A DNA stretch of 64,000 nt, from positions 1,184,001 to 1,248,000 of the forward strand of contig CAVSCK010000004.1 in the NCBI GenBank assembly GCA_963726455.1. Direction: 5' to 3'. Below are positions 26,948-64,000 of the stretch, piece by piece. The notes beneath the pieces are model-generated. The model ran no database searches. It was not told the origin of the DNA and was given only the letters and a program-made list of their open reading frames with translations. The DNA comes from an uncultured bacterium (lineage in GTDB: Bacteria; Zixibacteria; MSB-5A5; CAIYYT01). How positions within the stretch are numbered: position 1 is the first letter of the stretch; the number at the start of each line of letters is the position of its first letter. A program made the translations under genes and the position numbers.

Positions 26948-27559
26948 TCACATTTTGTGACCTTTTGCGATCTGGCCGATATGCACTTTGTGCGCGCGAA
27001 ATTCAGATTCGAGCATACTGTAGCACTTGAGACTAACCAGGCCACGCCGAAACGCCGCCTCATCCCGCTGAATGCCTTCGAACGCAAAGCCGAGTTTCTC
27101 AGCGATGCGACACGACGCCAGATTGTCTTCGGCGGCCCGCAAAATGACCTTGTGCAACTTAAGCTCCTTGAATGCAAACAGCAGCATCAGGGCAACCGCG
27201 GTCGAGCCGATCCCCTTCCCTGTTTGTGAGGTCCGAATCCAGTACCCGACCTCACCGGAACGGTTGGGGTCGCCGAGTCCGTGAAGTCCGATTTGGCCGA
27301 CGTATTGCTTGGTGCGCGAATCGAAGATGCTGAAGCCAAAACTGGTTCGGCGCTTGCGTCCTCTCCGGCAATTTTCGATGAACGCTGCGGCATCCTCACG
27401 AGTTCGACTGCGCCAGGGACTGATCATGAATCGCTCGAGTTCGGGACGACTTTCGTCGACGGCGGTTTGAATGGAATCCGCGTCCGATTTCCTCGGAAAG
27501 CGAAGATAGATATTACGGCTTTTGAGCAACATCGGGAGCCCACCCAATTCGACCGCCAT
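26948..27559 (-). CDS. GNAT N-acetyltransferase (RimJ/RimL family)
   Basis: GEVGYWI....GKG and N.AS.RIAEKLGF..EG motifs. Start at 27559 or 27532. Confidence 0.9.
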   Translation of the reverse strand: MAVELGGLPMLLKSRNIYLRFPRKSDADSIQTAVDESRPELERFMISPWRSRTREDAAAFIENCRRGRKRRTSFGFSIFDSRTKQYVGQIGLHGLGDPNRSGEVGYWIRTSQTGKGIGSTAVALMLLFAFKELKLHKVILRAAEDNLASCRIAEKLGFAFEGIQRDEAAFRRGLVSLKCYSMLESEFRAHKVHIGQIAKGHKM

Positions 27560-27636
27560 TAAAAGCGGAGTCAAACGACAAAGTTCACATCGACAAAGTA
27601 AGCTTCGGATGGCGGGCGGGCAAGCAGATTGTGCGC

Positions 27637-27670
27637 AAAAAAAACAGGTCGCCGGTTTGCCGGCGACCTG
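27637..27670 (-). terminator. Rho-independent terminator closing the three-lipoprotein operon
   Basis: 11-bp stem CAGGTCGCCGG/CCGGCGACCTG followed by 8 U on the minus strand. Confidence 0.85.
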
Positions 27671-27698
27671 TACAGTGTCGTTACTTGAGGTATAAGCG

Positions 27699-28931
27699 TC
27701 AGAACCTCGTATCGTCTCCGTTGCCGGTAAAGCGTGCGCGCTTGAACTCGACAGTCCAGGTGCCGTTTTCGAACTGCCCCTTGGCCATGACATCTGCACG
27801 ACTGCCGGAAGGCATCGTGGTGACAAACCAGGGAACAGTAGCCAGACTATCCCAACCGTCCGAATTCGGCTTGGCGATCTGCCAATCCCACAGCGGATAT
27901 GCCGCACTGGAATTGGGATCGTTGGCAGACTGGTACTTCGGCCGATTGTAGGATACCACTATCGCTCCGCCTGACAAGGCCCAGACATAATCTTCGTTAG
28001 GGATTTCGGGACCATTGCCAAGATCAGCGATTACACCGTCGGTGTACCTGTCGTCATAGCCGTCGGTCTTCTTCTGCGTTTTGTACGACATGTATTTGTC
28101 GTCGGCATGACCTGTAACATTGGAAGAGATCGAAGACCAACTCCAGAGATCTAAGCGAGGTTTCGGAAGCAAAGTGCTATGGAAGTACGTACCCGGCATG
28201 TCGGCGACCCATTGATTTTGCACGAGCTTGACAGGACTCTCATGACAGGTGACAAGGCAACCGTCGTGGTCGAACCAGAACATGGGCGTAATTTCGAACA
28301 TAAACATCACGCGATCCTGGTCCTGGTCGGCATTGATCACCTTCCAGATCGGTATATTCAGTGGATTATAAACCCAGGACGTATCCGGCGGATTTCCGAT
28401 TCGCACGGAGTCCTGTCCATGTATCCAGCGCCGGGTATCGAGAGTCGCCGCGGCCGTGACACCAAACTGCGGGACGTCCACCTCAGTATACTTTACCTGG
28501 AAATAGACGAAATTCTCGTCAAAGGCGGCACGAATTCGCGCCGATTCGATTCCGTTGTCGTAACCGGCCATCTTACGCAAATTGATGTCGCTGTACTTGG
28601 CGCCCCATTCACTCGCGCCACCGTCGACACCATCGATAATCGGCGCCGCGCCATTGATCAGTCGTTGGCAGACGACAGTATCGCCGGCATTCTGATGCAG
28701 CGTGTCGAACGCGAGATACACTTTCGGCGCGCCGTTGTGTGTCGTGAGACTGTTATTTCCGATTGCCAGCGAGAAGAAACGATTGTCCGGCACCGGCGCA
28801 GTGTACGGATTGCCCTGATCGCCTTGATCTCCCGTAACCCCGCGGCCGCCGGGGTTGCCCTCGCAACCAAAGATCGACAGCAGCAGGAGCGCAGCCAGGC
28901 CCGTCAAGAGAGTTATTATGATTCTTTTCAT
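27699..28931 (-). CDS. Lipoprotein: collagen-like stalk plus EB_dh/DOMON-like domain with CxxxCH heme-c motif
   Basis: Lipobox IFGC, 6 GXY triplets, P.IDG, RAAFD, DRV, GCLVTCH, DLW.W and DV.A.G...WTVEFKR..GNGDD motifs. Confidence 0.8.
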   Translation of the reverse strand: MKRIIITLLTGLAALLLLSIFGCEGNPGGRGVTGDQGDQGNPYTAPVPDNRFFSLAIGNNSLTTHNGAPKVYLAFDTLHQNAGDTVVCQRLINGAAPIIDGVDGGASEWGAKYSDINLRKMAGYDNGIESARIRAAFDENFVYFQVKYTEVDVPQFGVTAAATLDTRRWIHGQDSVRIGNPPDTSWVYNPLNIPIWKVINADQDQDRVMFMFEITPMFWFDHDGCLVTCHESPVKLVQNQWVADMPGTYFHSTLLPKPRLDLWSWSSISSNVTGHADDKYMSYKTQKKTDGYDDRYTDGVIADLGNGPEIPNEDYVWALSGGAIVVSYNRPKYQSANDPNSSAAYPLWDWQIAKPNSDGWDSLATVPWFVTTMPSGSRADVMAKGQFENGTWTVEFKRARFTGNGDDTRF

Positions 28932-28946
28932 CGTAGTCGGCTCCTT

Positions 28947-30233
28947 CTAAAACTGCACGTCGTCGCCGCTGTTGGTCTTGCGGGCGCGTTTAAGTTCCAC
29001 GGTCCAGGTGCCCAGAGAGTTGTCGAACGAGGCGACAGCGTAAACGTCGGCACGGCTGCCACTCGGAATTGTGGTCACGATTCCGGGTACATAGTTCATG
29101 TTGCGGCGCGTCCACCCTTTCTGCACAAAGCCGACGGCGTCGAAGTACCACAGCGGATAGATCTGGTTCTGCATCGTTCCACCGGTCGAATCAGTACGCA
29201 TGCCGGGGTCGAGGCGGTTCATGTACCTTGGGGTCGAGTCGGGCAGCAGATAGTTGTTGATGTACGGCGCCTGGCCGGCATCCGGACGTAAGCCTGCCGA
29301 AGTGATGCTCCAGTCGTCCGCTATGGCAACCGGTTTGGTGGTCGCCGATCCCCACGCCCAGACGTCTACGAACATATTCGACGGAATTGGATCAGGCGTG
29401 CCGGTGAAATTGAAATAATTGTTGAAGGCGACATTCTGCCAGCCCTGCGGAGGATTCTCCTTGGGCAGGAACAGAACCAGACGGTCTTCGCCATCTGTGC
29501 CCGGCTTCCAAACAAAGGTCGTATCGGCAATCGCGCGCGTGTTCCAGCACATGCAAGGATCGCCCAGTGCGCAAAGGGAATCGTACTTGATGCGCATATA
29601 GGTGAATAAGCTGTCAATTTTGGTCTTGGTCGCGCAGTTGTACTGATATTGATTTGTGTCCAGTCCGTGAAAGGCACGGGCGCTGAATCCCAGAACATTC
29701 ATTTCATATGTCTCTGAAGTCGTGAAATAGTACAGATCCTTGTTGTCGACCTTTGTCTTGATAGGTTGCTCCTGCCATTGGAACAGGAAATAGACGTTCT
29801 GATCGTCGTACGCGGCGCGCGCCGTGACGACTTTGGTTCCCGGTCCGGGAAGCGTATCGGGCAGTGTCAGATATGTCGGCCTGATCCTGGACTTTTGCGC
29901 ACCCCATTCGGTCTCCTCACCGTCGACACCATCGATGAGAGGTGGAATTGAGACGCGGTTTGCTACCAAAGTGTCACCGGTGCCGGTAGCCGTTGAATCA
30001 AATGTCAGATAAACTCGGGTTGAGCCGTCGACTTTTCTCAGACTGTCATTGGTGATACCGAAAGCGATAGTGCGTCCAGCAGGAGGCATTAGCTCTGTAT
30101 CCGTGCCACCCGGTCCAATCGGCCCAACCGGTCCCTTGCCGCCGACCGGCCCCGCATCGCCTTCGCACCCCGCAATCACTATCAGGCCGGCTAACGCCAC
30201 CAGACAGAAGATTATGAGACTCCACTTACGCAT
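28947..30233 (-). CDS. Lipoprotein: collagen-like stalk plus EB_dh/DOMON-like domain, Cys-rich insertion, no CxxCH
   Basis: Lipobox IAGC, 7 GXY triplets, PPLIDG, RAAYD, EDRL, DVWAW and WTVELKR motifs. Confidence 0.8.
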   Translation of the reverse strand: MRKWSLIIFCLVALAGLIVIAGCEGDAGPVGGKGPVGPIGPGGTDTELMPPAGRTIAFGITNDSLRKVDGSTRVYLTFDSTATGTGDTLVANRVSIPPLIDGVDGEETEWGAQKSRIRPTYLTLPDTLPGPGTKVVTARAAYDDQNVYFLFQWQEQPIKTKVDNKDLYYFTTSETYEMNVLGFSARAFHGLDTNQYQYNCATKTKIDSLFTYMRIKYDSLCALGDPCMCWNTRAIADTTFVWKPGTDGEDRLVLFLPKENPPQGWQNVAFNNYFNFTGTPDPIPSNMFVDVWAWGSATTKPVAIADDWSITSAGLRPDAGQAPYINNYLLPDSTPRYMNRLDPGMRTDSTGGTMQNQIYPLWYFDAVGFVQKGWTRRNMNYVPGIVTTIPSGSRADVYAVASFDNSLGTWTVELKRARKTNSGDDVQF

Positions 30234-30311
30234 TAATTCCTCCCTAATATTTCCAAAACTGGAGAGCTATAGTCAAGATTCATAGGTTCCTCTTCTCGTT
30301 TCCCTGTTGGC

Positions 30312-31379
30312 CTAAAATGCAGCATCGTCGCCATTACCGGTCTTTCGCATCCGGCTCAGTTCAACCGTCCATACGCCGGTGCCGGTATCGAAAGTTCCTC
30401 TGGCTCTCACATCAGCGGCGGAGCCGGACGGTGCGAAGAAAATATAACCGGGAACGGTCGCACCGTTGCGCCAGCCGTTGGTCGGATTGGCAAATAGAGT
30501 GTAATCGAAGCTGCGCAACGGATATGTTGATCCATAAACCGTCGAACCGGCTTTCATGTAAGTCGGATTGCCATTGTTGGCCGGGTTCTCTATCACAAAG
30601 GCGGGCGAAACGCCTACGTCGTACGCGGAGTTGTCTCCCGAAGCGGCAAAACCAACAATCTTGTCGGCCAGCCAACCAGAGTAATTTGTTTCGGTGGATT
30701 GCCATTCCCACAGGTCGGCAAATTCACCGGCAGCGGGAGTGCGGAAATTGGCGCCGTCGAATATCGCTTTCGCGCCTTCACTGGCCCAACCTGTGATGTT
30801 GGTCAATGCCCAGCTTACCAGCAGCCGATCCTCACCACCCGACTGCGACCACGAAGCTCCCGTGCTGTCAAACACCCACTGGCGTTTGGTCACATCTGCG
30901 GCCGGAATAAACTCGCCATTGGCAACTTCCTGCCATTTGAACTGCATATAGACATAAGTGCGGTCGAATGCCGCGCGAATCTCTACGTTCGTGATTCCGC
31001 TGTAAGCGCCCGCAATCGAATCCAGAGCCACGTTGTATGTCACGGCGCTCTTCCACTCGACGCCGCCGCCATCAACTCCGTCGATCGCCGGTGGAGTCGA
31101 AATTGGGAAAGCGATTACCTTGTTTGCGCCGGACGCGAGCGTATCGGATGTCAGCGAAACATTGTATGCTCCGACATAATCCGCTGCGGTGCTGTTGGCA
31201 ATTAGAACTCCAAAGTCTTGGCTTGTGATCGGAGTTGCCACCAGATTTTGTCCGGGAGGCCCCGGTTCCCCGGGATATCCTGGAGGCCCAGCCGGGCCCT
31301 CTTTGCCGGTACAACCGGCCAGTAGAACTACTAGTATACAAGTAGATAGAAATGCAGTGAGCGTTTTCCCAACCGACAT
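30312..31379 (-). CDS. Lipoprotein: collagen-like stalk plus EB_dh/DOMON-like domain, no CxxCH
   Basis: RBS GGAGGAG, lipobox LAGC, 7 GXY triplets, PAIDG, RAAFD, EDRL, DLWEW and WTVELSR motifs. Confidence 0.8.
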   Translation of the reverse strand: MSVGKTLTAFLSTCILVVLLAGCTGKEGPAGPPGYPGEPGPPGQNLVATPITSQDFGVLIANSTAADYVGAYNVSLTSDTLASGANKVIAFPISTPPAIDGVDGGGVEWKSAVTYNVALDSIAGAYSGITNVEIRAAFDRTYVYMQFKWQEVANGEFIPAADVTKRQWVFDSTGASWSQSGGEDRLLVSWALTNITGWASEGAKAIFDGANFRTPAAGEFADLWEWQSTETNYSGWLADKIVGFAASGDNSAYDVGVSPAFVIENPANNGNPTYMKAGSTVYGSTYPLRSFDYTLFANPTNGWRNGATVPGYIFFAPSGSAADVRARGTFDTGTGVWTVELSRMRKTGNGDDAAF

Positions 31380-31693
31380 TATCTCCTCCGTGACCATATA
31401 ATCAGAACAGCTATCTTCCAAAAAAATAACAGTTCGCACAATACAAAACCGGGCGTAGCGGCGCAAGGGATTTTTTGCCGGGCAGGAATATTGGACGGTA
31501 TCAAAGTCACATAGTACATGATCTTGCGAGCGCAGCCAGAGTTCTACATGCGAGCCAGCACACCGTAGTTAATGACGTACGAAGTTGCTACTTATTCAAT
31601 GCGTATTTCCGAATAATGGAGCTTACCGGCGACAGCCGCCGGATTGTGGTAAAAGAGGGCGACAAGATTTGATTTGACTCGGGCGTTCTGTGG

Positions 31694-32143
31694 CTAGTTG
31701 ATCTTGAAACTGCAAATAACCCAGCTTGTATTGCGCTTTTTCAGCTCCATCTGGCTGTAGTACTGAATCCGGGTCGCTCGATCTATGAATGAAACCTCGA
31801 CCGTGGCCGTGGTGTCGTCCAGGAGTTTCTCCTCGTTCACCACAATCTGCGACTTGGCCCAGGTTCGGCGGTATTCGCCTTCCCGGAGAAAGCCGTTAAT
31901 CAGCCGGTTCTTTTTATCCTGAAGCGACAGACTGTCGTAGCGCGCCGCGCCATACTCATAAGTGGCAACCGAGTCGGCATCGATAAATGGCAGAATGTCT
32001 GGCAATGAGTCGGCCTGAATCAGGCGGACAAATGATAGCACACGTTCACGCGGTGACGGCCCGGAACTGGAACAGCCCAGCCCAATTGCCAGGCAGATGA
32101 CCAGAGTCAGGACAGCCAGAACGCGATACGCCATCGCTACCAC
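31694..32143 (-). CDS. Hypothetical lipoprotein (NTF2-like C-terminus)
   Basis: Lipobox GLGC and the ATVEV...LKKR..W.I pattern. Confidence 0.65.
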   Translation of the reverse strand: MVAMAYRVLAVLTLVICLAIGLGCSSSGPSPRERVLSFVRLIQADSLPDILPFIDADSVATYEYGAARYDSLSLQDKKNRLINGFLREGEYRRTWAKSQIVVNEEKLLDDTTATVEVSFIDRATRIQYYSQMELKKRNTSWVICSFKIN

Positions 32144-33144
32144 CTGTAAGCCAGACCCACCCGATGGAGCGAGCCGAGGTCGGCATAAGGCAGGTAAGCA
32201 TAATCGATGGCAACCTTGGGCAGATTAAATCCGGCGCCGAATGAAAATCCGGCGGTGTTGTCCTTGCTGCCACCGGTCTTATAATTCTGGCCGAAGGTGG
32301 AATAACCGAGCCGCAGCGAGACCGGTATCTTCGGGTGGATTTCCACGCCGATCGAACCGTACAAATCGTTGTCCGCCGGCAGCACACCTTCCAGGGAGAC
32401 GGTCAGCGGCAATTCGTTGACGCGGTGGGAAATACCCGCGCGGATCAGTACCGGCAACGGGTCTTTGTGTTCTTTCGACAAACTCGAAAGCTGTACACCG
32501 AGATTGGAAGCCGACAGCCCGATGTTGGTGCGGCCGTCCTTAATTCGATATAGCAGACCGGCATCGATAGCCAATCCCGTCGATGAGTACTGGTCTATCT
32601 TCTGGTAAATGAATTTTACCGTGCCCCCGCCGGCAAGTTGCGGTGACAGCTTGCGGGCGTACGTCCCCGCCAGCGCCATGTCGGAACCGCCGAAATTGCC
32701 GTTCGCAATACCCAGATCATCAAAACCGTTGATAGTGCCATAATTAAGATATGTTATCGAGAAAGCCAGTGCCGCCGGGGAGTCGTGAAACGTTGGAGTC
32801 TCCTCTGCGTCACCGGAAGCCGGATCGGAGCCGCCGGGGTCGACCGCCTTGCCGCGCGGCAGAACACAGACCAGATTGCCCGACTGGATGCCGGCGATGT
32901 AGTTCATATATGAGGCCGAGACCGCGTTATGCTGGAAGCCCACTATGCCGGCGGGATTATAGTAGACGGCAGATTCGTCATCGGCCAAGCCGACAAACGC
33001 TCCGCCCATGGCAGCCGACTTCGCGCCAAATCCGATTTTCAAGAACGGATAGGCCGTAGTGCCGACTTTGCTCTTGCCGGCAAACAACGACGCCGACATC
33101 AAAAGAACTAAAACTACAGATAGAATGGTCTTGGCTGATTTCAT
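32137..33144 (-). CDS. PorV/PorQ-family outer-membrane beta-barrel
   Basis: GTT.YPFLKIG.GA..AAMGGAF, YYNPAG and C-terminal DYAY...LG..HR.....W. Confidence 0.85.
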   Translation of the reverse strand: MKSAKTILSVVLVLLMSASLFAGKSKVGTTAYPFLKIGFGAKSAAMGGAFVGLADDESAVYYNPAGIVGFQHNAVSASYMNYIAGIQSGNLVCVLPRGKAVDPGGSDPASGDAEETPTFHDSPAALAFSITYLNYGTINGFDDLGIANGNFGGSDMALAGTYARKLSPQLAGGGTVKFIYQKIDQYSSTGLAIDAGLLYRIKDGRTNIGLSASNLGVQLSSLSKEHKDPLPVLIRAGISHRVNELPLTVSLEGVLPADNDLYGSIGVEIHPKIPVSLRLGYSTFGQNYKTGGSKDNTAGFSFGAGFNLPKVAIDYAYLPYADLGSLHRVGLAYRW

Positions 33145-33208: not shown

Positions 33209-33682
33209 TTACCAGGTTTTGGTAGTCTCATCGACAATATCCTGGGCAAGTTTATCGATCGCGGCCGACTTGCCGTCATCCTCGGTCTGGCTGGTGGCAT
33301 TGTAGACGCCGAAACCGAGCATGTTGGACTTTTCATAAAGCGATTTACCACCCTTACGTTCCAGAACCACGTTCACGTAGATGTTGACCTTATATTCGGC
33401 GACGTTGCTGGCGGCGTCATAGGTATACGGCACTCGCTCGTACTTGACGATTTCCCCGCGCAGGACAGCGTCGGCGTCGGATTGTGCGACGACTTTCAGC
33501 GTGTTGTCGGCGATAAATCGCTCCGTAACTTTGCTGGTCAAATCGTCCTGAATGCCGTACTGCGTGGTTTTGTTGTCGAACTGCGGTATCGCGACGGTCT
33601 TAACACCGCCAAGGGATGAACTGGAAAACGAATAACACCCCGCGAAAATCAGTCCGACACACACTACTATGACGGCTCTCAA
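33209..33682 (-). CDS. lptE: LptE-family lipoprotein
   Basis: Lipobox FAGC-YSF, VAIP.FDN.T, ADAVL.GEI and terminal W. Confidence 0.75.
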   Translation of the reverse strand: MRAVIVVCVGLIFAGCYSFSSSSLGGVKTVAIPQFDNKTTQYGIQDDLTSKVTERFIADNTLKVVAQSDADAVLRGEIVKYERVPYTYDAASNVAEYKVNIYVNVVLERKGGKSLYEKSNMLGFGVYNATSQTEDDGKSAAIDKLAQDIVDETTKTW

Positions 33683-46550: not shown

Positions 46551-46823
46551 CAGGAATCTCGCGTTAGGGTTGGTTACGACACTAAATGGTAGTAGTATAC
46601 CGGTACCACCCCGGAAATGTTACAAAAAACACGCTGGCGCGCCGACATTCGCGGCGAGGGCGGCTGGATGCCCATTGATGCTTCGTTTTTCTGCCAGAAG
46701 AGTCCGCTCAGGATTCGTACAATTATTAAGGTAGCCGACGGCTTCCGCTCTCCTTGTGACTTGCATCTGGAACTTATCTGCCGCCGGGGTGGTTTATTGA
46801 AATATGTCGTAAGGAGTATTGAT

Positions 46824-47498
46824 ATGCAGAATCACAAAGGAAATGCAGCATTGATCGCGCTGCTCGCAGCATTGTATTATCTTGCGTCGGCCAGTGCTGT
46901 CTTCGCCACAATCCACAGGATCGACGTCGGCAATTTCTCATTTACGCCGGCAAAGACCCATGTACAACCGGGTGACACCGTCAGATGGCTCTGGGCCAAC
47001 GGTACCCACACCAGCACTACGGATCCCAGTTCGCCCAAACAATGGAGCTCGCCGGTCCTGTCGCTGACCAATCAATCTTTTCAGGTTGTATTCTCAGCCG
47101 GTGACGGCCCCGGACCATTCCCCTACCATTGCATCTACCATGAAGTGCTTTACAACATGAAGGATACAATCTTTATGACAGCATCGGGCGTCGAGGTTGA
47201 TCCCGAGGGTACCCTGCCGGGAGATTTTTCGGTCGAGCAGAATTATCCGAATCCGTTCAATCCCTCGACCACTATTAAGTTCACTTTACCGCGGCCTTCG
47301 GAAGTAGTACTCAGTGTGATCAACGTTGAGGGCGAGACCGTGTCACAACATCCGCTCGGCATGTTACAGGCGGGCTCGTATTCGGTCCAGTGGGACGGCA
47401 GAAACTCAGCCGGCGAGATGTTACAGTCGGGGGTCTATTTCTACCGAGTCAAGGCCGGAGAATTTGTCGAAACGCGAAAGATGGTGCTGCTGAAATAA
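46824..47498 (+). CDS. Secreted type-1 blue-copper (plastocyanin-like) protein with FlgD/T9SS-like C-terminal domain
   Basis: RBS AAGGAG, signal peptide, GDTV.W...H, YHC..H.....M copper ligands, then QNYPNPFNP.T...WDG...SGVYFY...KMVLLK. Confidence 0.88.
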   Translation: MQNHKGNAALIALLAALYYLASASAVFATIHRIDVGNFSFTPAKTHVQPGDTVRWLWANGTHTSTTDPSSPKQWSSPVLSLTNQSFQVVFSAGDGPGPFPYHCIYHEVLYNMKDTIFMTASGVEVDPEGTLPGDFSVEQNYPNPFNPSTTIKFTLPRPSEVVLSVINVEGETVSQHPLGMLQAGSYSVQWDGRNSAGEMLQSGVYFYRVKAGEFVETRKMVLLK

Positions 47499-57924: not shown

Positions 57925-58572
57925 TTGCCACAGATTTTTCCTCCATGGACAAATAAGCTCCCCCTGATTGTCGCCATCGGTATTGTCGTAGTCGTGATAG
58001 GTGTAATCGGCTTCTTCTGGTATTACGGTTCGCCCAAGTATACGGACGTCGGCTATCGCCCCAAACAGCCGGTTCCCTACAGTCATAAGCTGCACGCAGG
58101 CGATCTGGGAATGGATTGCCGGTACTGCCACAGCGACGTAGAAGTGTCGCCCGTAGCCAATGTACCTGCGACACAGACCTGCATGAATTGCCACAAGCTG
58201 ATCCTGCCCCAGAGCGAGAAACTGCTGCCGATTCGCGAGAGCTGGATGACCGGGATACCGTTGAAATGGGTGCGCGTACACGAGTTGCCGGAATTCGTCT
58301 ATTTCAACCATGCACCGCACCTGAATGCCGGAGTCGGTTGCTCCAGTTGCCATGGCGATGTCCGGCGCGAGGATGAAGTCACCCAGTTGATGCCGTTAAG
58401 CATGTCCTGGTGCCTTGATTGTCACCGCAATCCCGTCAACAGCATTCGGCCGCGCGAGGAACTGACCAACACCGAATGGTCACCGCCTGCAGATCAAGAG
58501 GCGTTTGGAAAACGAATGATCGCAGAACGCAATATCAAGCCACCAACGGAATGTTCAGGGTGCCACCGATGA
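57925..58572 (+). CDS. actA: Alternative complex III pentaheme cytochrome c subunit
   Basis: One TM helix, QPVPYSH..H and five CxxCH motifs. TTG start. Confidence 0.92.
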   Translation: MPQIFPPWTNKLPLIVAIGIVVVVIGVIGFFWYYGSPKYTDVGYRPKQPVPYSHKLHAGDLGMDCRYCHSDVEVSPVANVPATQTCMNCHKLILPQSEKLLPIRESWMTGIPLKWVRVHELPEFVYFNHAPHLNAGVGCSSCHGDVRREDEVTQLMPLSMSWCLDCHRNPVNSIRPREELTNTEWSPPADQEAFGKRMIAERNIKPPTECSGCHR

Positions 58573-61538
58573 GCAACAACAAGAAGGGCGATCCCAAGCA
58601 GTATTGGCGGAGTCTCGCTGAGCTGGAAAATTCGGCTTCAGAGGTTACGGAGAGACAACCGGAATTTCCGGAAGGAACATTCGATCCGCCGAACCGGGTG
58701 ACAAGACGAAACTTCCTGACCATGATGAGCGCCTCACTTGCTCTCGCGGGAGTTGGCTGCTTCCGCAAGCCACTCGAAAAGATCGTTCCCTACGTCATTC
58801 AACCCGAGGAAGTGATTCCGGGTGTGGCGCAACACTACGCCACGACTATGCCATTCGGGCTGGACGCCTTCGGATTGGTCGTGGAGAGCCATGAGGGCAG
58901 ACCTACCAAAATCGAAGGGAACAAGAATCATTCGTCATCGTTGGGCGGCACAAATCCGCTGATACAGGCATCGATCCTGGGGCTTTACGATCCCGATCGT
59001 TCGAAGATTACTCTCAATCATGGCTCTGATAGTAGTTGGGACGATTTCGTGACGTTCTGGCGCAAAGCACATCTCCACTTTGCTGAGACGAAAGGCGCCG
59101 GCCTTGCGGTACTCAGCGAAGCATTTTCATCGCCGACGATGGCGAGATTGAAGGCGGAATTTCTAAGTCAATTTCCGCAGGCGGTTTGGGTGACTTACGA
59201 ACCGGTTAGTGATGAGAATATATATGAGGGCGTGCGGATCGCCTCCGGCAAGCCACTAAGGCCGGTGTATTCGTATGGCAAGGCCGACGTTATCGTATCA
59301 TTGGATTCAGATTTTCTGTTTGGCGAGAGCGACAACGTAGCGGCCGCCAGAGGATTTGCCGACGGTCGACGCATCACCTCCGAGCATGACACGATGAATC
59401 GGCTTTATGTTGCCGAGGGTGTGTTCAGCTTGACCGGAACTATGGCAGATCATCGTTTGCGTGTCGAGAGTTCTCAAATTGCGCCGCTCGCTGCAGCGTT
59501 GGCCGCAGAACTCAGCCGACGGGGACTGCAGATTCCGATTGCTGGAAGACTCGGAAGTTACAGTGATACCAGCTTTGATAAGAAATGGCTGGCGGCAGCG
59601 GCTTCCGACTTGATCGCTGCCAAAGGCAAGGGTGTCGTTGTCGCAGGGCGACGCCAACCGCCGATTGTTCACGCGTTGGCGCTGGCAATCAATCAGGCGC
59701 TGGGAAATGTTGGCGCGACGGTCTCGTATCGTGAGATAACCGATTGTGAAGTGCCCAGCAGGGCTGCTCTCGGCGATCTGACGAAGAAGATGCTCAACAG
59801 CCAGGTTGACACTGTTGTGATAATTGGCGGGAATCCGGTATACGACGCGCCCGCGGATTTGGATTTCGTGAATGCTCTGGCCCAGGTGCCGAACCGCATC
59901 GGACTGGGAATGTATCTGGATGAGACGGCCGACACAATGATCTGGCATTTGCCACAAGCGCATTATCTGGAATCCTGGGGCGACGCCCGTTCCGCCGACG
60001 GCACGGCGAGCGTAATTCAGCCGTTGATTCTACCCCTATTCGGTGGCCACAGTTCGGTCGAATTGCTTGGACTGCTCGCAAGTGGAATCGAGGGCCGTGG
60101 ATACGATATCGTGCGGCAAACGTGGAACAAGTTTCTGACGGGCAGTTTCGAGCGGAACTGGGAGGGCGTGCTGTTCGAAGGCCGGCTGGCATACTCGGCA
60201 TTGCCGTTGGTTACGCCGGCAGTCGATGATAGCGCAATGGCTCAGTTGATCAATCAGGGCGGCCTGAAAGCGTCTGCGCAATCGACGGGCACATTCGAAG
60301 TTGTGTTTGCTCAATCGGCGATGCTATACGACGGGAGATTTGCCAACAACGGCTGGCTGCAGGAAGCACCGCATCCGGTGACGAAGATCACCTGGGACAA
60401 CGTCGCGCTGATTAGTCCGGCGGCTGCTCGGGAACTGAATGTTGACAACGGCGATATCGTGAAAATCACGGTCGACGGAAACAGCATCAAGATTCCGGCC
60501 TGGATTCAGCCGGGACAGGCGGAACGAACGGTCACACTCGACCTGGGATATGGCAGAAGACTTTCGGGGAGAGTCGGCAAGAACATTGGTGTCGATGTCT
60601 ACCCGATACGAACAACTTCGAGCAGCGACTTTGTTTCCGGCGTGGCGATAACGCCAAACGGAAGAACCTGCAAAATCTCAACAACACAAGACCACGATGT
60701 TATGGAGGGCCGGCCCCTCGTACGCGAGGCGACATTAGCTGAGTACAGGCAGAAGCCGACCTTTGCACAGAATGTGGTCGAGCATCCGCCGCTGCAATCG
60801 CTCTGGACGGAATATGATTACTCGAAGGGCAACCAATGGGGAATGACGGTTGATTTGACCACCTGCATCGGCTGCGCCGCGTGCGCACTCGCGTGTCAAA
60901 GCGAAAACAACACCGTTGTCGTCGGCAAGAAGCAGGTCGGCAAAGGTCGGCGCATGCACTGGATACGTGTGGATCGCTACTATCAGGGCACAAGCGACGA
61001 TCCCGAGGTCGTTCACCAGGTGGTCGCCTGCCAGCATTGCGAGAATGCGCCCTGCGAGCAGGTCTGCCCGGTGGCGGCGACGTTGCATGACAGCGAAGGT
61101 TTGAACTTACAGGTTTACAATCGTTGCATAGGCACCCGTTATTGTTCCAACAACTGCCCCTACAAAGTTCGTCGTTTCAATTTCTTCAATTACACCAAGG
61201 ACACGCCGGAGATCGTGCGGATGGCGATGAACCCCGACGTCACGGTGCGCTCTCGGGGCGTGATGGAGAAGTGCACGTTCTGTCTGCACCGAATCAATCG
61301 CGCTAAGATTAAGGCGAAACTGGATGGCCGGGAACTGCACGACGGCGAGGTGGTCACGGCGTGCCAGCAGGCATGCCCAACCGGAGCAATTGTCTTCGGC
61401 AACATTGTGGATGCCAACAGCAGGGTGAGCCAAACGAAGAAGCAGAACCGCAATTATGCGTTGTTGGATGAACTGAATACCAAGCCGCGCTTGTCGTACC
61501 TGGCGCGAATAAGAAATCCAAACCCGAACCTGGGCTAA
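58569..61538 (+). CDS. actB: Alternative complex III subunit B (Tat molybdopterin-oxidoreductase-like plus Fe-S)
   Basis: YWRSL.EL, RRNFL, GRPTKIEGN and CIGC..C, CQHC...PC, CIGTRYC, MEKCTFC motifs. Confidence 0.95.
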   Translation: MSNNKKGDPKQYWRSLAELENSASEVTERQPEFPEGTFDPPNRVTRRNFLTMMSASLALAGVGCFRKPLEKIVPYVIQPEEVIPGVAQHYATTMPFGLDAFGLVVESHEGRPTKIEGNKNHSSSLGGTNPLIQASILGLYDPDRSKITLNHGSDSSWDDFVTFWRKAHLHFAETKGAGLAVLSEAFSSPTMARLKAEFLSQFPQAVWVTYEPVSDENIYEGVRIASGKPLRPVYSYGKADVIVSLDSDFLFGESDNVAAARGFADGRRITSEHDTMNRLYVAEGVFSLTGTMADHRLRVESSQIAPLAAALAAELSRRGLQIPIAGRLGSYSDTSFDKKWLAAAASDLIAAKGKGVVVAGRRQPPIVHALALAINQALGNVGATVSYREITDCEVPSRAALGDLTKKMLNSQVDTVVIIGGNPVYDAPADLDFVNALAQVPNRIGLGMYLDETADTMIWHLPQAHYLESWGDARSADGTASVIQPLILPLFGGHSSVELLGLLASGIEGRGYDIVRQTWNKFLTGSFERNWEGVLFEGRLAYSALPLVTPAVDDSAMAQLINQGGLKASAQSTGTFEVVFAQSAMLYDGRFANNGWLQEAPHPVTKITWDNVALISPAAARELNVDNGDIVKITVDGNSIKIPAWIQPGQAERTVTLDLGYGRRLSGRVGKNIGVDVYPIRTTSSSDFVSGVAITPNGRTCKISTTQDHDVMEGRPLVREATLAEYRQKPTFAQNVVEHPPLQSLWTEYDYSKGNQWGMTVDLTTCIGCAACALACQSENNTVVVGKKQVGKGRRMHWIRVDRYYQGTSDDPEVVHQVVACQHCENAPCEQVCPVAATLHDSEGLNLQVYNRCIGTRYCSNNCPYKVRRFNFFNYTKDTPEIVRMAMNPDVTVRSRGVMEKCTFCLHRINRAKIKAKLDGRELHDGEVVTACQQACPTGAIVFGNIVDANSRVSQTKKQNRNYALLDELNTKPRLSYLARIRNPNPNLG

Positions 61539-61564
61539 TATCGAAACATGGCGGGAATAAACAG

Positions 61565-62959
61565 TTGAGTATCGAAGCCGGAGCACACCGGGAAATATTT
61601 GTCGAGGGAAATCCTCGCTTCAGCGCCATCACGAGCAGGATCAGCGGCATCGTCGAGTCGAAGACGGCCATGGGCTGGATACTGCTGTTCGGAATGGCCG
61701 TTTCCTTGCTGTTGCTCCTGCTGGGCTCGGTCGGATATCTGCTTTGGGAAGGAATCGGCATCTGGGGCCTGAATATCCCATCCGGTTGGGGATTTGACAT
61801 TACTAACTTTGTCTGGTGGGTCGGCATCGGGCACGCGGGCACATTGATATCGGCGATTCTATTTCTATTCCGGCAGCGCTGGCGGACATCGATCAATCGT
61901 TTCGCGGAGGCGATGACAATATTCGCGGTGATTTGTGCACTGCTGTTTCCGTCGATACATGTCGGTCGCGCCTGGCTGTTGTATTGGGTGTTTCCGGTAC
62001 CAAATCAGATGGCGATGTGGCCCAACTTCCGCAGTCCGCTTCTCTGGGACTTCTTCGCCGTCGGGACTTACTTCACTTGCTCATTGCTGTTCTGGTACGT
62101 CGGATTGATTCCTGATCTGGCAACTCTGAGAGACCGCGCCAAAACCCGCGTGCGCAAGATTCTTTACGGGATATTCGCCATCGGCTGGCGTGGTGGGAAC
62201 CGGCAGTGGAAGCATTATGAGTTGGCGTACCTGATCCTGGCAGGCATCATGACGCCTTTGGTGTTGTCAGTTCACTCGGTCGTCAGCACCGACTTCGCGA
62301 CCAGTGTTGTACCGGGATGGCATACCACGATCTATCCCCCCTATTTCGTAGCCGGCGCAATCTTCTCGGGCTTCGCGATGGTGATGACCTTGATACTGAT
62401 CGCCCGGCGAATCTACCATCTGGAAGACATCATCACCATGAAGCATCTCGAACGAATGAACATTCTGATGCTGGTTACGGGACTAATGGTGTCATATTCC
62501 TATGTCAGCGAGTTCTTCATCGCCTGGTATTCAGCGAATCCTTACGAACAGTTCGCTTTTTACAATCGCGTCTTCGGCCCCTATTGGTGGGCTTCAGCGA
62601 TAATGCTGGTCTGCAATGTTGCGGTGCCGCAGCTATTCTGGTTCAAACGTTTTCGAACCAGCATACTGGTAATGTTCATAGTTTCGATTCTGATCAATGT
62701 CGGCATGTGGTTCGAGCGCTGGGTGATTATTCTTTCCCTGTTGCGCGATTACTTACCGTCGAGTTGGGGATGGTACTGGCCGACGAAATGGGAAGTCTTC
62801 ATTATGGTCGGCGCTTTCGGACTGTTCTTCACGTTGTTCCTGTTGTTCATTCGCCACCTGCCGATCGTTGCGATGTCGGAAGTGAAGAACGTATTACCGC
62901 AGGCAGATCCTCACTACAAAACAGAAATGAGCCGCGGCGCAACAGGAGGTAATGCGTGA
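61565..62959 (+). CDS. actC: Alternative complex III NrfD-type membrane subunit
   Basis: WWVGIGHAGTLISA, SPLLWD and SVHS.VS motifs. Confidence 0.95.
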   Translation: MSIEAGAHREIFVEGNPRFSAITSRISGIVESKTAMGWILLFGMAVSLLLLLLGSVGYLLWEGIGIWGLNIPSGWGFDITNFVWWVGIGHAGTLISAILFLFRQRWRTSINRFAEAMTIFAVICALLFPSIHVGRAWLLYWVFPVPNQMAMWPNFRSPLLWDFFAVGTYFTCSLLFWYVGLIPDLATLRDRAKTRVRKILYGIFAIGWRGGNRQWKHYELAYLILAGIMTPLVLSVHSVVSTDFATSVVPGWHTTIYPPYFVAGAIFSGFAMVMTLILIARRIYHLEDIITMKHLERMNILMLVTGLMVSYSYVSEFFIAWYSANPYEQFAFYNRVFGPYWWASAIMLVCNVAVPQLFWFKRFRTSILVMFIVSILINVGMWFERWVIILSLLRDYLPSSWGWYWPTKWEVFIMVGAFGLFFTLFLLFIRHLPIVAMSEVKNVLPQADPHYKTEMSRGATGGNA

Positions 62960-63498
62960 ACAGCATTCCGCACGTGGCGACCATACTTGCCGAATTCGAT
63001 TCGCCGGCGGCCTTGTTGGCGGCAGCCCGGAAGGTCAAGGACGCGGGCTACACACATTTCGACAGTCATTCACCATTTCCGGTACACGGGATGGATGAAG
63101 CAATGGGATTGAAACGATCATCTCTTGGATATTGGGTAGGCGCCGTAGCGTTCGTGGCAATAGCGGCAGCAACGCTGGCCATCTGGTGGATTACGGCAGT
63201 TGATTTCCCGATGGTGATTTCGGGAAAACCATATTTCAGTTTCCAGGCATTTGTACCGGTGATATTTGCGGTGACGATTCTGTCTTCCGCACTCGCGACA
63301 TTGATCACGATGCTCGCGCTGAATCGACTGCCGAAGTTATTCCATCCGCTTTTCGAGTCCAAGCGATTCGCGAAAGTAACCGACGATGCCTTCTTTATCA
63401 GTATAGAGGCAGACGATCCGAAATTCGAGGCGTTGGCTACCGAGCAATTCCTGAAGGATATCGGCAGCAATTATGTGGAGGTCATCGAACTGGCATGA
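62956..63498 (+). CDS. actD: Alternative complex III subunit D (DUF3341)
   Basis: SPFPVHG, SGKP and DD.FF motifs. Confidence 0.93.
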   Translation: MNSIPHVATILAEFDSPAALLAAARKVKDAGYTHFDSHSPFPVHGMDEAMGLKRSSLGYWVGAVAFVAIAAATLAIWWITAVDFPMVISGKPYFSFQAFVPVIFAVTILSSALATLITMLALNRLPKLFHPLFESKRFAKVTDDAFFISIEADDPKFEALATEQFLKDIGSNYVEVIELA

Positions 63499-64000
63499 GG
63501 AAGCGGATGTTCGCAAAAGTATCAATCGTTACTGCACTGCTGCTATTTGCACTTGGTGTGAATGGCTGTTTTCGCGGCGAGCCAAAACGCGAGCCGCCGA
63601 TTCATGTCAATCCGAATATGTTCAAGCAGGAAAAATATCTGCCGCAGTCGGAGAGCAGGTTCTTCGCCGACAGCGCCACAATGCGGCAGCCGGTAGCGGG
63701 AACAGTCCCCAACGACGAATGGCGTGGTGATACGGCGTTCTATCGAGGACGGGACGATCGCGACAGTCTGCTGGCGAAGTCCCCGGTGCCTCTGACGATC
63801 CAGTTGCTGAAACGCGGACAGGAACGATTCAACATCTACTGTTCGCCGTGCCATAGCAGAATTGGCGATGGTCAGGGAATAATCGTACAACGCGGATATG
63901 TGCCGCCACCAAGTTACCATCAGGATCGGCTGCGTAATGTTCCCGACGGATATATCTTTGACGTTATGACAAATGGACTGCGAAATATGCCCTCCTATCG
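63495..64000 (+). CDS. actE: Alternative complex III monoheme lipoprotein subunit, 3'-partial
   Basis: Not in the ORF track because it runs off the end. Translates MRKRMF...VNGC-FRG...RQPVAGTVP...RGQERFNIYCSPCH. Confidence 0.9.
   Translation, partial: MRKRMFAKVSIVTALLLFALGVNGCFRGEPKREPPIHVNPNMFKQEKYLPQSESRFFADSATMRQPVAGTVPNDEWRGDTAFYRGRDDRDSLLAKSPVPLTIQLLKRGQERFNIYCSPCHSRIGDGQGIIVQRGYVPPPSYHQDRLRNVPDGYIFDVMTNGLRNMPSY

Follow-up and report, generated by a model that had tools for sequence, protein, structure and literature searches.

A Three-Gene Lipoprotein Operon

The window analysed here, a 64,000-nucleotide stretch of contig CAVSCK010000004.1 from an uncultured Zixibacteria genome, carries three tandem paralogous genes on its minus strand, which we call A, B and C. 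Each encodes a lipoprotein precursor in which a short collagen-like Gly-X-Y run follows the lipobox cysteine and is itself followed by a head domain of the EB_dh family (PF09459). Coordinates are collected in Table 1.

The layout of the three genes suggests a single transcription unit with a promoter region of its own: one conserved promoter-like element precedes A, the spacers are short and each holds a ribosome-binding site, and a single terminator follows C. The noncoding stretch upstream of A is 314 bp long (31380–31693), and the terminator behind C is the sole strong one found in 27400–32200; the original prediction, which had described this tandem arrangement and spacing from the bare sequence, was accurate on these points. 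In all seven upstream regions that were aligned (the window, L001, L009, L011, L010, L008 and L002), the promoter-like element contains blocks of invariant columns. The DNA beyond it diverges among the seven, with extra sequence in three loci. The ribosome-binding site of A (GGAGGAG, 31383–31389) is invariant in 7/7 aligned loci. The open reading frame (ORF) list begins A at TTG 31466; we prefer the ATG at 31379, behind GGAGGAG, because TTG 31466 falls within the conserved upstream element and the GGAGGAG site is invariant. A sigma-70 consensus scan upstream of A returned no minus-strand site, and its site count was no better than in shuffled sequence. An Rfam scan of 27000–32500 matched no family.

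Table 1. Features of the A-B-C locus and of the alternative complex III cluster in the window
Feature	Coordinates	Strand	Description
Gene A	30312..31379	-	355-aa lipoprotein precursor; signal peptide, lipobox LAGC (Cys23), 7 Gly-X-Y triplets, putatively haem-less EB_dh head
Gene B	28947..30233	-	428-aa lipoprotein precursor; lipobox IAGC (Cys23), 7 triplets, putatively haem-less EB_dh head with two insertions
Gene C	27699..28931	-	410-aa lipoprotein precursor; lipobox IFGC (Cys23), 6 triplets, EB_dh head retaining CX3CH
Stalk of A	31245..31307	-	residues 25–45, GKE GPA GPP GYP GEP GPP GQN
Stalk of B	30099..30161	-	residues 25–45, GDA GPV GGK GPV GPI GPG GTD
Stalk of C	28806..28859	-	residues 25–42, GNP GGR GVT GDQ GDQ GNP
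CX3CH of C	28242..28259	-	C225 L V T C229 H230; candidate covalent haem-binding site
A-B spacer	30234..30311	-	78 bp; ribosome-binding site AGGGAGG; no hairpin, no terminator
B-C spacer	28932..28946	-	15 bp; ribosome-binding site AAGGAG; no hairpin
Promoter-like element upstream of A	31421..31478	-	A-tract, CTTGC, TTTTGTAT..TG, CTGTTATTT
Intrinsic terminator 3' of C	27644..27671	-	12-bp stem, 9 G-C pairs, loop of 4, T7 tail
Alternative complex III cluster	57925-63998	+	member genes in the next five rows
Multihaem c7/c3-type cytochrome	57925-58572	+	alternative complex III cluster
ActB-like Fe-S/molybdopterin-family protein	58419-61538	+	alternative complex III cluster
NrfD-type membrane subunit	61565-62959	+	alternative complex III cluster
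ActD	62956-63498	+	alternative complex III cluster
Cytochrome c, extends past window end	to 63998	+	alternative complex III cluster

Conservation of the Trio

Copy number was assessed with a family hidden Markov model (HMM) run over all ORFs of 26 loci from a scan of species-representative genomes. In the window clade, all 18 loci (two of them truncated by contig ends) carry A, B and C in tandem in that order and no fourth copy; in a sister lineage, all five loci carry exactly two genes, D1 with 7 triplets and D2 with 6. Two Planctomycetota loci have one larger protein each, and the remaining locus is fragmentary and shares its genome with one of the A-B-C loci. The number of genes thus does not vary freely among these relatives; free variation is what the original prediction had named as speaking against a three-chain complex. 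The neighbours of one Planctomycetota locus (L020) are a transhydrogenase, a solute-binding protein and sugar enzymes, and give no functional hint. Gene order across the region (HutI-like, LptE, PorV/PorQ-family protein, small lipoprotein, trio, GNAT, ComM) is conserved in all related genomes, and the two-gene loci occupy the same position as the trio but are preceded by an additional exonuclease-like gene.

A quick maximum-likelihood tree was built from 75 rows; it omits rows shorter than 300 aa and the two Planctomycetota proteins and includes 11 additional distant proteins. In this tree A, B and C fall into separate clades of 18, 19 and 17 rows. Each clade has 100% support in the Shimodaira-Hasegawa-like approximate likelihood ratio test (SH-aLRT), and the inner branching is similar; the tree leaves deep relations unsettled, including the attachment of D1 and D2. 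The window proteins are 57%–59% identical to their nearest orthologues and heads across loci ~40%–60%; the flanking ComM is 92%–93% identical in the related genomes. True B orthologues are all at least 420 aa long. The apparent 368 aa of the one in L010 (9329–10432) is not real, because the gene crosses a masked N run (34 X, >1/10 of the chain).

The Gly-X-Y Stalks

The predicted signal peptides of all three proteins fit the bacterial-lipoprotein pattern [LVI][ASTVIF][GAS]C at residues 20–23, and the G/A-C pair is kept in all orthologues aligned. As had been noted from the sequence, the Gly-X-Y run begins two residues after the lipobox cysteine (residue 25 in A, B and C), so that the stalks share one offset from the anchor. 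The runs are not a chance occurrence, since, of the 198 ORFs in the window that are 80 aa or longer (36,834 aa in all), only A, B and C contain a Gly-X-Y run of five or more triplets.

The register holds across the related loci. Readable stalks have seven triplets in A (18/18), B (19/19) and D1 (5/5) and six in C (19/19) and D2 (5/5). In every readable sequence the run begins at Cys+2, and none of the 66 stalks is interrupted or has gained or lost a triplet; the linker between stalk end and first strand is of fixed length too. The X and Y residues vary across orthologues yet retain chain-specific features: an aromatic residue or Leu at X of triplet 4 in A (17/18), Arg at Y of triplet 2 in C (19/19), and abundant K and R across the B orthologues. 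Proline ranks first or second in frequency at both X and Y in all three chains, which therefore have both the uninterrupted Gly and the Pro-rich X/Y positions characteristic of a collagen triple helix.

Relatives with longer runs exceed the 27.2-bit cut-off of the Pfam Collagen family, PF01391 (P0109, 37.9; P0195, 32.8; P0086, 29.8; P0053, 28.0). Among 147 further representatives, 35 have at least five uninterrupted triplets, and in 30 of these the run lies near the N-terminus. In P0053 and P0086 the collagen run is instead C-terminal of the head, followed in P0053 by a hydrophobic C-terminal tail. From these longer runs and the runs behind the head, the stalk-plus-EB_dh-head design therefore recurs in two topologies.

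Such a stretch might form no triple helix at all and act as an extended tether, rich in proline, that holds a monomeric head away from the membrane, in which case the three proteins would be independent. A tether would suit the shortness of the runs (6–7 triplets) and their Pfam Collagen scores (A 18.9 bits, below the cut-off; B and C no match). The N-terminus of MtrC (6r2q_C) also aligns to the lipobox plus GxxGxxG, at E 0.19, and in an AlphaFold2 (AF2) monomer model of C the stalk is weak, with a predicted local distance difference test score (pLDDT) of 52–68 for residues 21–40, as expected of an isolated chain either way. A tether should, however, tolerate length change and loss of Gly, and neither is seen in the 66 stalks while X and Y vary; the linker behind the stalk is likewise fixed in length, and all three stalks pack together in the model of a relative described below. 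We favour the triple helix because a plain spacer is not expected to keep both the Gly register and the exact length. It seems likely that the A, B and C stalks form some triple helix, and improbable that they serve as plain tethers.

The proteins have no match to the lipoprotein export signal of Bacteroidetes, which is given as a polar or basic residue followed by at least two adjacent acidic residues at +2 to +6, with C-X-K-(D/E)2-X and SDDDD as examples (PMC5080379). Their N-termini (C-T-G-K-E-G, C-E-G-D-A-G and C-E-G-N-P-G) contain no adjacent acidic pair; the motif is a Bacteroidetes consensus and may not be used by Zixibacteria.

The EB_dh Heads

At ~34% pairwise identity, A, B and C score 41.6, 55.0 and 56.5 bits against EB_dh, all above the gathering cut-off of 33.3, so the HMM search bears out the EB_dh/DOMON-like head proposed for them. 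NCBIfam has no family above cut-off for any of the three. The head motifs picked out from the sequence in the original prediction are invariant in the three-way alignment: P97, I99, D100 and G101; R135–A137 and D139; D184 and R185; D222, W224 and W226; D323, V324 and A326; W337–E340; R343; G350–D352; and F355.

The AF2 model of C (only the C head was modelled) has a mean pLDDT of 85.8 and a predicted template modelling score (pTM) of 0.82, with a confident head in the β-sandwich fold of EbdC and NxrC. In a Foldseek search the best PDB folds were NxrC of Kuenenia (7b04_C, 1.5e-5) and EbdC (2ivf_C, 1.1e-3), each with probability 1.00 and low TM-scores (0.20–0.39); the CBM9 modules 1i82_A and 7nwn came next with weak scores. 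Profile searches of the PDB ranked 7b04_C (1.6e-20) ahead of 1i82_A (3.4e-6) and 2ivf_C (1.2e-5), and a single-sequence search with C gave no match. The ESM Atlas returned EB_dh clusters only, with scores of 0.79–0.81 that lie under the 0.9 level.

The head is a circular permutation of the arrangement seen in NxrC and EbdC. Residues 50–75 of C align with residues 285–311 of 7b04_C, such that the C-terminal strand of NxrC, which bears Lys305, corresponds to the first strand of C, directly after the stalk. Both topologies are present in the family: of 29 distant relatives with a recognisable end motif, 10 end there and 19 run on for at least 20 residues, 13 of the latter with an N..H pattern. 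The B head has two insertions at about residues 150–240 that are missing from A and C. One of them holds four Cys in the window copy, of which only one column appears in the B-orthologue consensus.

Beyond the loci, a word-indexed search with C as query gave 65 proteins, almost all of them metagenomic, with a few names that indicate Zixibacteria and Marinimicrobia. When 1.84 billion cluster representatives were searched by profile, 1518 relatives scored at E<=1e-3. Among the matches listed, nearly all have Cys-X3-Cys-His inside the domain; many also contain CXXCH cytochrome c domains or have two to three copies of the domain per chain. Two-domain forms are the commoner; P0066 and P0077 have three EB_dh domains in one chain, each with CX3CH, and may be single-chain counterparts of a multi-head design. 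P0066 has a PKD-like domain and P0077 ends in a type IX secretion sorting domain, by which some family members are probably secreted or surface-attached.

One Haem Motif per Locus

Haem-type residues were counted in an alignment of the orthologue groups with 48 distant single-domain relatives. The Cys, Cys and His of CX3CH are present in 17/17 C, 5/5 D2 and 47–48/48 distant relatives, and in 0/18 A and 0/19 B. Three more positions set C apart from A and B: H65 is found in 17/17 C and 5/5 D2, K70 in 16/17 C, and H251 in 17/17 C; the H251 column is Met in 5/5 D2 and in 30/48 distant relatives. A and B lack every candidate haem residue. In so far as the original prediction, with its shared head like the haem-binding EB_dh/DOMON fold, implied three redox heads, it did not hold: only C keeps haem-type residues. 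The motif of C is the CX3CH variant of the c-type cytochrome signature (CXXCH or CXnCH), not the Met/Lys haem b site of EbdC.

NxrC binds haem b via Met155 and Lys305 (PMC8387239). In the profile alignment NxrC Lys305 is one residue from K70 of C, a residue absent from A and B, and NxrC Met155 and EbdC Met108 are two residues from the family Met column that is H251 in C; these offsets are at the level of alignment. Judged by sequence, exactly one gene per locus keeps a haem site, and that site carries a c-type attachment motif absent from EbdC and NxrC. C probably bears a c-type haem, because it alone keeps CX3CH with the accompanying His residues. We are more confident still that A and B are haem-less.

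The heads might instead have no redox function and be DOMON/CBM9-like ligand or glycan binders in a collectin-like envelope lectin or adhesin, with the CX3CH of C structural or metal-binding. The best sequence and fold matches are to haem subunits, NxrC and EbdC, which argues otherwise, as does the near-universal Cys-X3-Cys-His of the distant relatives, often fused to CXXCH cytochrome c domains. This alternative draws on the CBM9 modules that come next among the PDB matches by profile and by fold, on a match of relative P0195 to CBM9_1 as well, on the two heads without haem residues, on the lack of adjacent redox genes, and on the sorting domain of the three-domain relative P0077. We consider it quite unlikely.

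A Mixed Trimer Modelled in a Two-Gene Relative

A complex of two D1 chains and one D2 chain was modelled for one sister-lineage locus, L023. The 2:1 ratio was assumed by analogy with the trio, which has two haem-less 7-triplet chains and one haem-motif 6-triplet chain. The model has an ipSAE of 0.63 (0.63, 0.61 and 0.64 in separate runs), and the best of three controls reached 0.01. The mark that it passes is reached by 116/157 solved complexes and 2/215 mismatched pairs, a calibration that is only rough for this three-chain job with custom alignments. At least 89% of contacts are shared between runs, and partner pLDDT is at least 77. Confident contacts occur at stalk residues 3–22 of both D1 copies and 1–20 of D2; in the model, therefore, the three chains run in register from the anchor. 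The heads also touch in patches, for example between the C-terminal NTGSGND of D1 and a QAPVID stretch of D2. We know of no precedent for these head contacts.

The model supports a mixed trimer in a relative of the window, and is compatible with homotrimers as well. The heterotrimer of the original prediction was thus sustained to the extent of a hetero-interface in a 2:1 model of a two-gene relative. For the window itself, where mature A, B and C together comprise 1121 residues, mixed assembly over three homotrimers is what we infer from co-retention, complementary motif loss and the L023 model at its assumed ratio.

Three separate homotrimers (AAA, BBB and CCC) would mean that the operon does no more than express together three related envelope proteins whose heads differ. 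Homotrimers would also conserve a stalk pattern within each orthologue group, as is seen, and the co-divergence of the three clades is expected of any co-inherited genes. The window stalks bear too few charges for hetero and homo registers to be scored by charge pairs. Described bacterial collagen-like proteins assemble as homotrimers, with long repeat regions (PMC8968730). Yet the A and B heads, which have lost a near-universal CX3CH, are conserved and co-retained in 18/18 loci; the sister lineage also pairs a haem-less 7-triplet gene with a haem-motif 6-triplet gene; and the mixed L023 model passed, with head-head contacts between different chains. We regard three homotrimers as unlikely.

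Proposed Assembly and Role

Genes, operon signals, lipobox, Gly register, family membership, conservation and motif loss are read directly; the triple helix, its stoichiometry, haem binding, location and role are what we infer. In the reading that we favour, and which we hold at about an even chance, A, B and C form a lipid-anchored, collagen-stalked 1:1:1 heterotrimer with one c-type-haem head and two haem-less heads that acts in extracytoplasmic electron transfer or redox sensing. Signal peptidase II would cleave A, B and C, leaving each lipid-anchored at Cys23, and the 7, 7 and 6 triplets, at equal offset from the anchor, would coil into a single short triple helix of the collagen type, by which the three EB_dh β-sandwich heads would be kept together. 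The C head would probably bear one covalently bound haem, and A and B would be structural or partner-binding heads. The whole would work outside the cytoplasm as a module with a single haem, tethered to the membrane and active in electron transfer or redox sensing, and the two-gene sister lineage would build the same module as a 2:1 trimer.

Several observations pull the other way. Besides the low Pfam Collagen scores already given, 6–7 triplets without hydroxyproline are short for a stable helix, and the sister-lineage D1 and D2 stalks are nearly all acidic, a charge pattern expected to work against close packing. MtrC, a single-copy subunit of a porin-cytochrome complex, cautions that such runs can be tethers. 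The stalk part of the L023 result may reflect likeness to solved collagen helices, and the ratio in that model was set beforehand. Haem binding is read from motifs only, and no redox partner genes are encoded near the trio. In D1, the first gene of each pair (L022–L026), both Cys are kept and the His is replaced by Glu or Gly; the Cys pair may form a disulfide or belong to a half-decayed haem site. Because synteny is conserved across the whole region, gene order by itself carries little weight.

The fuller proposal is of a natural bacterial heterotrimeric collagen helix in which EB_dh heads select the three chains or, in the sister lineage, two chains at 2:1; lipidated Cys would set the register, and one haem head would be combined with two 'pseudo-cytochrome' heads. 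We rate it a tentative proposal, somewhat short of an even chance. There is a fair chance that it would be the first natural heterotrimeric bacterial collagen. The literature searched for EB_dh/DOMON proteins with collagen-like stretches, CX3CH or Zixibacteria yielded no description of this combination. The component domain types are already known, and their combination is new as far as that literature goes.

Comparison with Known Systems

The γ subunits EbdC (2IVF chain C) and NxrC (7B04 chain C) share PF09459 with the trio heads and are their best fold matches. They also share haem-pocket motifs: the RAxYD..YxYF strand, DxWxWKA and WTVE..R..TG..D..F. They are soluble partners of Mo/Fe-S subunits and bind haem b via Met and Lys (PMC8387239). 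The trio, in contrast, has no Mo-enzyme partner nearby and adds a lipid anchor and a Gly-X-Y stalk; C has CX3CH with a His at or near the Met position, A and B lack haem residues, and the strand equivalent to the C-terminal Lys-ligand strand of NxrC is N-terminal. CBM9 modules (1I82, 7NWN), members of the same DOMON-like clan, match the N-terminal half of the head weakly both in sequence and in fold, but they have no haem motif, are not lipoproteins and form part of glycoside hydrolases.

Scl1/Scl2, BclA and similar bacterial proteins resemble the trio in carrying Gly-X-Y repeats without hydroxyproline beside a non-collagenous trimerising domain on the cell envelope. The trio differs from them in its three different chains, its very short stalks of fixed length and its EB_dh head. 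The decahaem surface lipoproteins MtrC and OmcA (6R2Q chain C, Shewanella) likewise have a lipobox Cys and then a short Gly-X-Y-like run, but an unrelated fold and ten haems. C1q-type heterotrimers consist of three paralogous chains from adjacent genes, with a collagen stalk of about 26 triplets beside globular heads. They serve as our working analogy, in which the heads would select the chains. The trio has an unrelated head fold, a stalk of 6–7 triplets, a lipid anchor and a bacterial host, and the likeness to C1q is an analogy and not membership.

Genomic Context

There are no EbdAB-type molybdopterin α or Fe-S β genes within 25 kb on either side of the trio, in line with the original prediction that no such molybdoenzyme is adjacent. 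The nearest member of the molybdoenzyme superfamily is the ActB-like gene, 27 kb off in an alternative complex III cluster. This cluster includes cytochromes c, which means that c-type cytochromes are made by the organism.

Directly upstream of the trio lie three genes (31694–32143; 32137–33144, minus strand; 33209–33682) for a 149-aa lipoprotein without a family, a PorV/PorQ-family outer-membrane protein and LptE, all of them syntenic in all related loci. The PorV/PorQ-family protein scores 179 bits against NF033709 (cut-off 90) and 202 against the PorQ model, below its cut-off of 220. Elsewhere in the window, 46617–47498 (plus strand) encodes a FlgD-Ig domain protein with a borderline type IX secretion C-terminal sorting domain (27.0 bits versus 27). 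Taken with the PorV/PorQ gene, this protein points to a type IX secretion system in the organism.

Between the small lipoprotein gene and A, three related loci contain ~0.4–0.5 kb of mutually alignable DNA (L010 7438–8180, L011 2962–3770, L002 6940–7575) that resembles an additional small gene, which the window is without. On the other side of the trio, a long listed ORF (26948–27907, minus strand) overlaps gene C and the terminator; the GNAT acetyltransferase contained in it most likely begins near 27532, ~110 nt past the terminator.

Significance

To our knowledge, registered ABC collagen heterotrimers have so far needed engineered charge pairs or borrowed animal domains. If the proposed assembly is correct, a natural, operon-encoded ABC or A2B stalk of 6–7 triplets would offer a compact model for chain selection and register, and the trio would be a minimal ABC collagen, genetically defined and equipped with its own redox reporter. 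Through the trio, the EB_dh/DOMON haem family would also gain a hitherto unstudied branch, with CX3CH as the haem motif among the distant relatives examined, and this branch would include a case of subfunctionalisation into one haem head and two haem-less heads. The genes come from uncultured Zixibacteria-type genomes, and a function assigned to them would annotate a conserved envelope locus of that group.

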